Below are positions 12,054 to 34,267 of a stretch of DNA of 64,000 nucleotides, piece after piece (position 1 is the stretch's first letter; each line of letters begins with the position of its first letter). The stretch is from Candidatus Heimdallarchaeota archaeon (GTDB lineage Archaea; Asgardarchaeota; Heimdallarchaeia; JABLTI01), in NCBI GenBank assembly GCA_018238155.1, contig JABCTZ010000036.1, forward strand, positions 32,001 through 96,000, in the 5' to 3' direction. The translations under genes and the position numbers were made by a program. The notes below the pieces were generated by a model, which made no database searches, was not told where the DNA came from, and was given only the letters and a program-made list of their open reading frames with translations.

Positions 12054-12947
12054 ATGACAACACGTATTGCTTGGGCAATTACAGGCGCAGGTTGCTGGTT
12101 AACAGAAAGTTTTGCCGTTCTAGGAAAGTTATTGAAAAAGGACGGGATTAAAATTGATTTATTCTTCAGTAAAGCTGGTAGAGAGGTTGCACAATGTTAT
12201 GGTGTGTTTGAGTCTCCAGTACCAATGAAAACACCATTTATTGACAAAATTCGTGAAATACCGAATTTTAATGAGGATATCTTTATGCCTAATTTTGTTG
12301 AAAAATTTCAATGGTTAGGTGCAAAGGATACTCGAGATCTTAAGAAAACTATGATAACGAAATCTCTAGAAGAAGAATTTGATTTTGAAGAAGCTTTTCG
12401 TGATGTTGTTTTTGAAATAGATGAAGGATCTAGTTTTCCAACAGCAGCAACAGCTTCTAATAATCGGTATGATGTAATAGTTATTTCCCCTGCAACAGGC
12501 AACACTGTGGCAAAAATTTCTCAAGGTATAGCGGATAATTTAGTTACAAATTTAGCTATAATGGGTAGTAAAAGTGAAAATACACCTGTAATTATCATTC
12601 CAACTGATTTCAAAGAAGGAATTTCAAAAAGCTATTTACCAATAATGCTTCATTCCGATACATGCAAAAAATGCTCGGAATGTTCTTCTCTTTGGGCTTG
12701 TAAACCAGGAGCTATCCGAAGAAAAAGGGGAAAAGTACAAATTCATCGTTTGAAATGTACCGGTTGTTTGGATTGTGTACGATATTGTCGACATGGTATC
12801 ATTACTTTTCTTGAAGAAATTGAAGTACATGTAAGGTCACGTGAGGTAGACGCAACAAACTTGCTCAAAAGCCAACGTGGTTTTAAAGTCTTGGGAACAC
12901 CAGAAGACGCTTACAATTATATCAGTAAGATGCTGAAAAAGAGCTAG
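12054..12947 (+). CDS. Archaeal flavoprotein with ferredoxin insert (AfpA/dihydromethanopterin reductase DmrX-like)
   Basis: IAWAITGAG, SPATGNTVAKISQGIADNLVTN flavoprotein motifs; CKKCSEC...C and CTGCLDCVRYC Fe-S motifs. Confidence 0.82.
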   Translation: MTTRIAWAITGAGCWLTESFAVLGKLLKKDGIKIDLFFSKAGREVAQCYGVFESPVPMKTPFIDKIREIPNFNEDIFMPNFVEKFQWLGAKDTRDLKKTMITKSLEEEFDFEEAFRDVVFEIDEGSSFPTAATASNNRYDVIVISPATGNTVAKISQGIADNLVTNLAIMGSKSENTPVIIIPTDFKEGISKSYLPIMLHSDTCKKCSECSSLWACKPGAIRRKRGKVQIHRLKCTGCLDCVRYCRHGIITFLEEIEVHVRSREVDATNLLKSQRGFKVLGTPEDAYNYISKMLKKS

Positions 12948-25510: not shown

Positions 25511-25530
25511 CATCACCACTCTTTTTTTCT

Positions 25531-25660
25531 ATGGATAAATAGGATATCTAGTTTATCCATCATTAGTTACCATAACAAATAAGTTGTTGGTACAGGTTCA
25601 TTTCTGAACCCCCACAAGGAACAGTCGTGTAAAGGATTCCTAAGTCTGTATAGAGCACAT
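25531..25660 (-). mobile_element. Putative IS200/IS605/IS607-type right end / omega-RNA scaffold, copy 1
   Basis: Overlaps the 3' end of the tnpB remnant; GGUUCA-GAAA-UGAACC hairpin (25595-25610) and 9-bp atggataaa/tttatccat stem (25531-25560); homologous to 33918-34065. Confidence 0.55.
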
Positions 25661-25860
25661 GGTTGAAGTCTTTCAGATTTCTAATTTTGTGATAATCAAT
25701 GAAGGATGCTTGGCAGGTGTTCACAGTAGCAATGTAATCGTGATTTGCGGTGAATCTACATTCTGAGTAATGGAACCATCGATTTCGCTTATCAGCGGTC
25801 AAGTTGTTTGATTCCTTAACTTTCATTCCTTCATCATCTGTTTTAGCTTTTTTGTGTTTC
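25563..25860 (-). pseudogene. tnpB: Degenerate C-terminal remnant of a TnpB-like RNA-guided nuclease
   Basis: ...EGMKVKESNNLTADKRNRWFHYSECRFTANHDYIATVNT resembles the TnpB Zn-ribbon/RuvC-III pattern F-x-C-xx-C-G-x-x-x-D-R-D-x-x-A-x-x-N-I with C>Y, G>R, DR>NH decay; N-terminal part absent (upstream TGA). Confidence 0.62.
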
Positions 25861-26295
25861 TTTCATTACCTCTGTGTTATCCAATAATACCTACCTCTAT
25901 TACAATTAGCAACTGTAAAACCTTGCCCAATTTGCATCAAACTAACAGTACAACCATTAGGATTTGTGCTTGAACACCAATATTTTTATTGTTTCTTCTC
26001 TTCAAATTCTTGTCCCTTCATTTCTCAATTCACATGCTCCAGTATCCCTTATTCTAATTGCTCATAAAAACATCAATAGTAGTAACCCAAACTTTTATTT
26101 TTCAAAAGCTTTTGATTCTATAATTGAGCAAAGTTTGTTTTTGCTCAAATGCGCTGAATAAAAAACGAACAACCCAAATACGAATCCGAGTAGTTGATTG
26201 GATAAGAATTCCTCTCAAAAAAACTCTTAATTTGGGTAATTTAAAATAAAATGGTTCTAATTAATTTGGAACCTTCAGAGAAAGAGGTGTAAAAA

Positions 26296-32760: not shown

Positions 32761-33702
32761 TTAGTCGCTCATAAGAGCAAGCATAACAGCTTTTTGTGAA
32801 TGTTTTCTATTTTCAGCTTCATCAAACACTACACTTTGTTTGCTATCAATAACTTCGTCAGTAACTTCGTATCCTCTGTGAGCTGGCAAACAGTGTAAGA
32901 ATATAGCATCATTTTTAGCGTGAGCCATTAATTTTTTATTGACTGAGAAATCTTTGAATGCTTTGAGACGTATCTCTTTCTGAGATTCATCACCCATTGA
33001 TATCCATGTGTCAGTATAAACAACATCAGCGTCTTTAACTCCAGCTGGAATATCACTAGTGACTTCTAATTTGGTACCTATTTTATCAGCTAATGCTTGA
33101 ACTTTCTTAGTAATTTCTGCATCAGGTTTATAGTCATCTGGGCAAACAATAGAAACATCCATACCCATTTTTGTGCAACCTATCATTAAGGAATGTGCAA
33201 CATTGTTGCCATCGCCAACGTAAACGAGTTTAAGTCCTTTTAGTGTTCCTTTGTGTTCTGTAATCGTTTGAAGGTCAGCTAATATCTGGCAAGGATGATA
33301 AAGGTCACAGAGACCATTTATTACTGGAATGGTAGCATATTGAGCCATTACTGCTAGTGTTTCATGTTTATAAACTCGAGCCATAATTCCACCAAGATAT
33401 CTTGAGAGAACTTGAGCAGTGTCAGAAGGTGCTTCCCCTGTTCCAACAAGTTGAGTGTCTCTAAAACTCAGAAAGAGAGGTTGTCCTCCTAATTCCCAAA
33501 TACCTGTTTCAAAGGAAACTCTGGTACGAGTAGACGTTTTTTCAAACATCATTCCTAAGCTTTTCTTTAATGGCTTGCGATCTGGATGACCACCATTTTT
33601 CTTGTATTCTGCTTTTAATTCTGCCCCAAGATCTAAGAAATATTTGATCTCTTCTGGGGTGAAATCAAAAAGTGTAAGCATATGTCGCCCTTTAAAATTC
33701 AT
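32761..33702 (-). CDS. argF: Ornithine carbamoyltransferase
   Basis: STRTR, HPCQ, GDGNNV, DTWISMG, HCLP; GAGGA before ATG 33702. Confidence 0.96.
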   Translation of the reverse strand: MNFKGRHMLTLFDFTPEEIKYFLDLGAELKAEYKKNGGHPDRKPLKKSLGMMFEKTSTRTRVSFETGIWELGGQPLFLSFRDTQLVGTGEAPSDTAQVLSRYLGGIMARVYKHETLAVMAQYATIPVINGLCDLYHPCQILADLQTITEHKGTLKGLKLVYVGDGNNVAHSLMIGCTKMGMDVSIVCPDDYKPDAEITKKVQALADKIGTKLEVTSDIPAGVKDADVVYTDTWISMGDESQKEIRLKAFKDFSVNKKLMAHAKNDAIFLHCLPAHRGYEVTDEVIDSKQSVVFDEAENRKHSQKAVMLALMSD

Positions 33703-33735
33703 GATTATTCCTCGTATCATATTTTTTTTCTCAGA

Positions 33736-33855
33736 ACAGATGATCGAACAAATTTGAACAATCAACTGTGGTCGTGAGTGCTCTTTTCACTTGCTTCGAC
33801 CGAGGAAAAGATAAACTCGGATTTAGAAAATATCCAAACGTGGATACTAATAAAA
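33736..33855 (-). promoter_or_regulatory. Putative argF promoter with palindromic site and multi-hairpin leader
   Basis: TTTTATTA (33855-33848), TATCCA-N4-TGGATA (33831-33846), three adjacent stems in 33736-33820. Confidence 0.45.
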
Positions 33856-33917
33856 TGTTCGTCTTAATCTAAAATTGCTTTTCGTTTATTTGAAGTAGTA
33901 TAATTAGCTGTAAAACT

Positions 33918-34065
33918 TGGATAACCGTTCCTTTTTTTTTGATCAAATAGGTCATAACTCAATTTATCCACTCCTAGTCACCACAACCAGTTTATTGATG
34001 CAGTTCATTTCTGAGATTCACGGGAACAGTTGGGTGTGGGGTTTCTAATCCTTTTGTGTGAACAT
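33918..34065 (-). repeat. Second, ORF-less copy of the TnpB-associated right-end/omega-RNA-like sequence
   Basis: Collinear shared blocks with 25531-25660: actgttcc, tcagaaatgaac, tggt(a/g)acta, tggataaa; terminal tggataa/ttatcca stem retained. Confidence 0.6.
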
Positions 34066-34267
34066 TTTATTTAGTATAAATAAAAAATTCATTACAAATA
34101 AAAACAATATCTTTATTAACATTCTTGACAGATAAATATTCTAACCTTGTGTGGTGGGTGAATACATTCTCAATCTTGTGAGAATCTTATTATCATCTTT
34201 CTAAAAAGGTTTTAAAAAGTAAGCAATAAAAATCCAAATATACTTAATTTAAGAGAGATGAATTTAG

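Follow-up and report, generated by a model that had tools for sequence, protein, structure and literature searches.

Protein-less, PATE-like derivatives of IS200/IS605 elements that encode omega-RNAs have been described (Meers et al. 2023, bioRxiv 10.1101/2023.03.14.532601), and Asgard archaea carry aCas1-associated, repeat-flanked TnpB transposons, groups Cas1H-Asgard-1 and Cas1H-Asgard-2, for which the guide region was left open (Altae-Tran et al. 2023, PMC10691335). In these aCas1-associated elements a hypervariable region follows tnpB, and is followed in turn by a conserved GTTCACTCA motif (PMC10691335). We analysed a stretch of 64,000 nt (the window) from the genome of a Candidatus Heimdallarchaeota archaeon, in which an earlier note had singled out the intergenic DNA upstream of a carbamoyltransferase gene as an orphan copy of a TnpB-associated structured RNA (here, copy 2), resembling the 3′ end of a tnpB remnant elsewhere in the window (copy 1). 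The note suggested an Asgard family of non-autonomous elements, or an orphan guide RNA acting in trans with a TnpB or a TldR-like protein. Wiegand et al. are said to have found that TldR proteins are nuclease-dead, TnpB-derived RNA-guided repressors. We conclude that copy 2 is probably a non-functional, left-truncated and decaying right-end relic of a genus-specific TnpB transposon (Table 1).

Table 1. Features of copy 2, copy 1 and their surroundings, in window coordinates
Feature	Position	Strand	Evidence
Copy 2: 3′ ~125 nt of an omega-RNA-type scaffold, reaching from helix a (3′ strand) to the right end	33924-34048	-	leave-out HMM, covariance model R1
Right-end terminus and 3′ strand of the pseudoknot, GGAACGGT	33924-33931	-	flanks of 30 copies; filled/empty pairs
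5′ strand of the pseudoknot, ACTGTTCC; in the loop of helix b in intact copies	34023-34030	-	pair counts, 32 copies
Position of helix b, broken	34015-34041	-	1/8 pairs
Helix c (CUCAG/CUAGG) around the internal loop AGAAAUGA...GUGA and helix d	33973-34015	-	pair counts, covariation
Helix e, right-end hairpin in subterminal position; the inner inverted repeat common to the left end forms its 3′ arm	33940-33970	-	9/11 pairs
Would-be guide, flanking host DNA directly 3′ of the scaffold	33904-33923	-	orthologous to intergenic DNA of G009 and G001
AT-rich tract, ancestral intergenic DNA	34049-34092		aligns with G001/G009 between conserved anchors
Ornithine/aspartate carbamoyltransferase gene, downstream of copy 2	32761-33765	-	Pfam OTCace_N E = 1e-44, OTCace E = 1e-64
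Copy 1: scaffold of full length but with a weakened pseudoknot, immediately following the gene for ribosomal protein L11	25516-25666	-	covariance model, 129.1 bits
tnpB 3′ remnant, upstream of and overlapping copy 1	25599-25832	-	tblastn with the C17 TnpB
Copy 1 locus DNA absent from the orthologous L11/acetyl-CoA-synthetase spacer of G009	25529-26085		comparison with G009:C35

The two copies in the window are homologous. Copy 2 (33924-34071) aligns collinearly with copy 1 (25516-25666), both on the minus strand as the note had seen, with a local alignment score of 43; 2,000 shuffles, a control for which the note itself had called, gave 10.6 ± 1.8 (z = 17.7). A profile hidden Markov model (HMM) of 30 other family members, with neither window copy included, matches copy 2 at 33924-34048 on the minus strand (E = 2.7e-22, model positions 24-151) and copy 1 at 25523-25664 (E = 1.7e-27), and the covariance model R1 gives copy 2 111.3 bits over 33924-34071 (for copy 1, see Table 1). 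Although the genome is AT-rich (GC 0.33), these values already refute chance or low complexity as the source of the similarity. The homology runs only from 33924 to about 34048-34058; this part of the element span first proposed (33918-34090) stands, and positions 33918-33923 and the AT-rich remainder drop out of it. Because a sister genome has sequence that aligns with the tract at 34062-34092 in its orthologous intergenic region, this tract is ancestral flank rather than element, and the TATA-like stretch at 34075-34090, which had been tied to copy 2, belongs to the host. The proposed TGGATAA/TTATCCA terminal stem is likewise lost: TTATCCA (33918-33924) straddles the boundary between element and flank, and the real 3′ hairpin is helix e.

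Both copies belong to a family about 150-165 nt long. BLAST and nhmmer searches of the whole genome (4.08 Mb, GC 0.33) recovered nine strong copies, all with E < 1e-24, and the search of related Asgard genomes that the note had proposed added about 25 copies, spread over 5 of the 10 sister genomes at a maximum of 11 per genome. When 100 relatives were searched with R1, matches came from the same genus only, apart from two weak ones that were more distant. Rfam holds no family matching the element or the neighbouring leader, and returned unrelated sub-threshold matches only.

The link to tnpB 3′ ends, which the note had drawn from a remnant, holds for intact genes. Family copies overlap the 3′ ends of two intact open reading frames (ORFs) of 547 amino acids (C17) and 453 amino acids (C6), which we identify as TnpB because both have Pfam OrfB_IS605 and Cas12f1-like_TNB domains; sister genomes contain at least eight further tnpB-linked copies. 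In the alignment, the C17 and C6 tnpB genes read the shared stretch in different frames, so what is conserved is the RNA or DNA and not a protein-coding sequence. Aligned to solved TnpB and Cas12f chains, the 547-amino-acid C17 TnpB has the RuvC motifs IDLG, IEDL and DRD in place; its D-E-D triad is intact and the protein apparently catalytic. Family homology ends exactly after the octamer GGAACGGT in every copy, and the flanks of 30 copies diverge at once beyond it; the empty sites of C17 and C21 identify the flank after the scaffold as host DNA. A scaffold inside the element with the guide in the flank outside is the arrangement of TnpB omega-RNAs, and the note was right to take the guide from the flank and to end the module at the transposon right end.

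The family RNA has a covariation-supported structure of five helices (a-e) and a pseudoknot, in which ACUGUUCC, located in the loop of helix b, pairs with the terminal GGAACGGU. We set the helices by hand, because folding of single sequences was uninformative (minimum free energy z-score of +1.06 for copy 2 and -1.84 for the intact C17 copy) and RNAalifold on the raw MAFFT alignment gave only part of the structure, and then tested them by counting pairs against slid partners. In the nine in-genome copies, 79.5% of cells are paired, compared with 34-48% with partners slid; in 32 aligned copies the figure is 87.8%, compared with 35-47%. The note had proposed a covariance model and a covariation check; the model is R1, and over the 32 copies 26 of the 46 pairs show double-sided, compensatory changes. 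As the pseudoknot is absent from the model, its 92.9% pairing across the 32 copies, with C-G/U-A/U-G variation, is independent of the fit of the alignment.

Helix b covaries across the family (A-U/G-C and C-G/U-A; variants CCUUCACC/GGUGAGGG, CCCCCACU/AGUGGGGG, CCUCCGCU/AGCGGAGG and CCUUCGCC/GGCGAAGG) and is intact, with 7-8 of 8 pairs, in every tnpB-linked copy. Helix c is formed by CUCAG pairing with CUGGG across helix d, and covariation is found in its outer pairs and in helix d. In helix e, UGGAUAAAU.. is paired with ..CCUAUUUGAUCA. An extra hairpin of 4-5 bp adjoins the modelled region on its 5′ side, reading GUCUxAAAGAC in tnpB-linked copies and GCCUUCGAGGC or GAGCUUAGCUC in the mini-elements described below. 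The UCA-GAAA-UGA hairpin of the earlier note is not part of this structure, and conflicts with helix c, the helix that covaries: a U to C change in at least eight copies would break that hairpin but forms a C-G pair in helix c.

An internal loop between helices c and d, AGAxAUGA opposite GUGA, is invariant in all copies (alignment columns 61-72 and 123-131; 34004-34015 and 33973-33981 in copy 2) and is probably a protein-contact motif. We considered a K-turn and rejected it, as the register misfits the standard K-turn.

Copy 2 is an orphan, as the note had described it: the structured module of tnpB 3′ ends, here without a tnpB ORF. It keeps 29 of the 46 pairs, compared with 35-44 in tnpB-linked copies, and the losses are uneven (helix a 3/6, b 1/8, c 4/5, d 4/8, e 9/11, pseudoknot 8/8). 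Helix b has suffered a 3-nt deletion together with substitutions in its 3′ strand, the 5′ hairpins are missing and the scaffold is truncated at its 5′ side. Family-invariant positions are kept at 21 of 34 in the 5′ half and at 20 of 22 in the 3′ half, and identity to any other copy is at most 71%. The GC content of copy 2 is 0.37, compared with 0.44-0.50 in tnpB-linked copies and 0.33 in the genome.

This state bears on the suggestion that copy 2 is a working stand-alone guide RNA, which would be transcribed from the AT-rich spacer and loaded in trans by the C17 or C6 TnpB, with helices c-e and the pseudoknot as its scaffold and the 16-20 nt just upstream of the carbamoyltransferase promoter as its guide. 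The complete pseudoknot, the nearly complete helix e, the exact terminus and the well-kept invariant positions of the 3′ half would suit such an RNA, and the genome encodes a TnpB of the family whose RuvC triad is intact. Protein-less mini-elements that keep the RNA intact make use in trans plausible, and the literature accepts trans-acting omega-RNAs of protein-less IS200/IS605 derivatives (bioRxiv 10.1101/2023.03.14.532601). However, helix b, intact and covarying in every tnpB-linked copy, is destroyed here, and the 5′ hairpins have gone with it. The guide-match check that the note had proposed, run on this genome, gave near-matches to the 20 nt after the scaffold at the level of shuffled expectation and thus no second target; the locus itself carries ACGGT, and not an AGGGT-like motif (see below), next to the would-be target. 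The exact junction 22-mer had no hits in public metagenome and genome collections. With copy 2 also absent at the same site in the nearest genomes, a working guide seems unlikely, and to propose copy 2 as a candidate guide in trans over-reads it. Nothing was found to favour the TldR-like version of the idea: it meets the same absence of conservation and of a second target, and in addition the matching C17 TnpB has an intact D-E-D triad.

Trimmed omega-RNAs are known for other TnpBs, and by analogy the 5′-truncated scaffold of copy 2 might still bind TnpB. That it is made and loaded in trans, as a naturally minimised guide RNA near the carbamoyltransferase promoter, strikes us as improbable; if true, it would mark an early stage in the domestication of an RNA-guided regulator in an Asgard archaeon. 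A search of sequencing runs for the locus returned two metagenome DNA runs with 5% of its words and no RNA run, which speaks neither for nor against such a transcript.

The family forms the right end of a transposon that has inverted subterminal repeats and occurs in two forms: an 11-kb form with tnpB, and protein-less mini-elements of 280-400 nt. At C17, 11.1 kb separate the left end of the 11-kb form from the tnpB right end downstream of it, and the two ends share a perfect inverted repeat of 22 nt. The element encodes an MrfA-Zn-binding/metallophosphatase protein, a DEAD helicase, a 1,392-amino-acid protein without Pfam hits and, divergently from tnpB, a LAGLIDADG_3/HTH_3 protein. The whole 11.16 kb is missing at the orthologous site of the sister genome G009 (C99), which reads ...TTAGGGT/TAACTCAGTATGAG..., the element of the present genome (G000) standing exactly at the slash. 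It is inserted precisely between AGGGT and TAACTCA (L061:1202-1212 and 12363-12380), with a GT(T) ambiguity only.

Most family copies without tnpB are more than a bare right end. Mini-elements occur at C3, C7, C21 and C40/C16 in this genome, with further copies in G004, G005 and G009, and consist of a left end, a tnpB-upstream segment and the RNA module, with no gene. The left end starts directly after AGGGT and reads xxCAACTGTTgCC...TATGGACAAATAGGACAT; its inner 18-22 nt are the reverse complement of ATGTCCTATTTGTCCATA in the right end. The second segment (AATACTTTC..AGAGAAAAG) is the one found just upstream of tnpB in full elements. These two parts explain the upstream sequence that the C3 and C7 copies have in common, for which the left end of the C17 and C6 tnpB genes had been tried as a source with an empty BLAST result. 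The mini-element at C21 (G000 C21:201109-201456; L003:2302-2649) has an intact RNA scaffold (41/46 pairs) and is a precise insertion of 345-347 nt, absent at the orthologous sites G001:C321 and G009:C124.

Neither of the two filled/empty pairs (C17 and C21) shows a target duplication beyond the 2-3-nt GT(T) ambiguity. Of the 12 left ends in the genome, 10 follow an AGGGT-like motif, and the last bases of the right end are ACGGT. The motif before the left ends, taken together with the filled/empty pairs, makes AGGGT a candidate target-adjacent motif, with insertion just 3′ of it. Element retention through TnpB targeting of the empty site is the usual TnpB logic, and the RNA of the C17 element would likewise match its empty site. 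IS200/IS605 elements combine a Y1 (HUH) TnpA, subterminal hairpins at both ends and duplication-free insertion 3′ of a short motif. Here, insertion 3′ of AGGGT without duplication (two pairs) and a right-end hairpin were observed in an element with inverted repeats; no left-end hairpin is evident, and the only Y1 transposase in the genome is a single disrupted fragment.

Three further sites illustrate how these elements are arranged. At C6 (G000 C6:29587-29700; L056:588-700), a family left end truncates a Y1 (IS200-type) transposase to its N-terminal codons (HYHIIFVVKYRKRVF...); beyond that end lies an MrfA-Zn/metallophosphatase gene and, 2.3 kb further, a classical 418-amino-acid IS605-type tnpB, an arrangement that looks like one mobile element inside another. 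At C7 (L007:2270-2345), GGAACGGT follows a weak right-end look-alike and abuts the left end of a mini-element (GGAACGGT/GGGCAACTGTT), which may reflect a head-to-tail insertion, with the ACGGT of the older right end serving as target motif. G009 (contigs C124, C79, C117, C35, C50, C116 and C5) has at least six near-identical mini-elements, mostly at contig ends, which suggests recent bursts of the protein-less form in that sister genome.

Mini-elements such as the precise C21 insertion and the near-identical copies in G009 raise the question of whether copy 2 is itself an intact MITE- or PATE-like element that the family transposase could mobilise. No left-end motif was found near copy 2, the nearest look-alike being part of conserved host DNA where the neighbouring gene starts, and without a left end copy 2 is not an intact non-autonomous element. 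The net extra DNA at the site, about 107 nt, is also below the size of any mini-element. An intact element is accordingly very unlikely, and the idea of an Asgard non-autonomous family is correct for the protein-less elements with this module in the genus, but not for copy 2.

The orthologous sites speak for a truncated relic. Copy 2 is absent from the site in the two closest genomes, G009 and G001, although their carbamoyltransferase genes next to it are 89-90% identical to the one here; the distance between identical anchors is 305 nt in G000, 198 nt in G009 and 199 nt in G001. The site has gained about 107 nt net, whereas the fragment measures about 125 nt, so some host DNA was also lost; a gain smaller than the fragment fits an insertion and then a deletion of the left part of the element. 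The right boundary is exact, directly after GGAACGGT, and the left boundary is blurred, with about 20-40 nt of host DNA missing. Because the nearest genomes lack it, copy 2 is no conserved, domesticated feature. We also considered that a mature omega-RNA had been retro-inserted, and rejected this, as the sequence that follows GGAACGGT comes from the local host flank rather than from a foreign guide.

Other debris of the family is distributed in the same genome. Copy 1 keeps 33 of 46 pairs, with 3 of 8 in the pseudoknot in the model register, and has a GC content of 0.36. The intact 547-amino-acid C17 TnpB matches its locus in tblastn over amino acids 447-524 (59% identity, E = 3e-22), in agreement with the note, which had called it a tnpB 3′ remnant. 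In the comparison with G009:C35, matches cover query positions 1-829 and 1386-2000, which abut in G009. Further right-end fragments measure about 45-50 nt at C8 and about 80 nt at C39, alongside about 310 nt with a tnpB tail for copy 1. The left truncation points differ among the fragments, which points to random deletion rather than a defined functional unit. Left-end-only relics are found at C39:15101-15653, C44 and C11.

Within the insert at the copy 1 locus, 160 nt (25826-25986) are 87% identical to the start of contig C13 (62-218) and 78% identical to that of contig C12 (62-223), and thus form a further repeat at which the assembly breaks.

Some 160 nt separate copy 2 from the carbamoyltransferase gene that follows it on the same strand. 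Independently of TnpB, it could have been co-opted as a cis element of that promoter region, for example through altered spacing or through half-sites like those of a TATCCA-N4-TGGATA palindrome 70 nt downstream: TGGATA in helix e and TATCCA at the flank junction resemble the halves of this palindrome (~33835-33850). We regard this as speculation with little to recommend it, because the hexamers belong to the family consensus (TGGATAAA) or to AT-rich flank and so arise easily by chance, the proximal promoter and leader block is conserved with sister genomes and untouched by the insertion, and the insertion itself is not conserved.

The block in question, 33740-33890 on the minus strand, is near-identical in G000, G009 and G001 and conserved above the level of coding sequence. 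The palindrome follows a TATA-like TTTTATTA within it, Rfam gives no match, and the block is probably an operator and structured leader.

We hypothesize the following history for copy 2 as a decaying right-end relic. An intact right end would encode a scaffold RNA of about 165 nt, comprising a small 5′ hairpin, helices a-e and a pseudoknot that would tie the loop of helix b to the last 8 nt of the scaffold. The RNA would overlap the 3′ end of tnpB and continue into the flank, which would serve as the guide. TnpB and this RNA would cut the empty site, consisting of the AGGGT-like motif and then the flank, so that the element would be preserved. In the present lineage an element, either mini or full length, would have inserted between the carbamoyltransferase gene and a TSP3-repeat gene, and a later deletion would have taken its left part and about 20-40 nt of host DNA. 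We infer this order of insertion and deletion, and with it a loss of function of copy 2, the remainder of which would now be drifting towards the AT-rich composition of the genome. The good preservation of its 3′ part may mark a young relic; with one copy and no closer strains, copy 2 may also be under purifying selection.

Protein-less omega-RNA derivatives of IS200/IS605 elements and repeat-flanked Asgard TnpB elements are already known, and copy 2 is a fragment of such an element. Like the omega-RNAs of TnpB (OMEGA; ISDra2 and the G. stearothermophilus IS605 family), the family RNA overlaps the 3′ end of tnpB and stops at the right end, takes its guide from the adjacent flank, has pseudoknot nucleotides next to the guide and is linked to a TnpB with an intact RuvC D-E-D triad. 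Unlike them, it is not in Rfam and belongs to a transposon with inverted subterminal repeats and no Y1 TnpA, and copy 2 lacks tnpB and part of the scaffold. TldR shares with the earlier suggestion the notion that a guide RNA of the TnpB family is directed to the promoter region of a host gene; in contrast to TldR, the catalytic triad of the matching TnpB is intact, the guide is a mere insertion flank and the locus is not conserved in the nearest genomes.

The similarity to the Cas1H-Asgard transposons includes a Heimdall-group Asgard host, a tnpB at the end of a repeat-flanked multi-gene element with a helicase and a LAGLIDADG/HTH protein, and a variable region that begins after a conserved T downstream of tnpB. 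The GTTCACTCA motif, however, is absent from the 150 nt downstream of all 29 copies whose flanks are readable, even with one mismatch allowed, and the 1,392-amino-acid ORF gives no Cas1 signal in Pfam, NCBIfam or Atlas. Casposase-type integration produces a target-site duplication, unlike the two filled/empty pairs.

The mini-elements (C21, C3, C7, C40/C16 and the sister copies) resemble PATE in having both ends and the RNA but no gene, and, as with PATE, would need TnpB and a transposase in trans. They differ from PATE in deriving from an inverted-repeat transposon, with an 11-kb parent that carries cargo, and in keeping the tnpB-upstream segment; copy 2, having no left end, is itself not PATE-like. 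Copy 2 alone is ordinary transposon debris of little weight. What its family adds to the known systems is a covariation-backed scaffold model with a pseudoknot and an exact scaffold/guide junction for the hitherto little-characterised Asgard TnpB transposons, an AGGGT-like candidate target-adjacent motif from duplication-free filled/empty pairs, and mini-elements in which the tnpB-upstream segment and an intact RNA persist, as a guide RNA acting in trans would lead one to expect. These results could aid the mining of Asgard TnpBs as compact RNA-guided nucleases.
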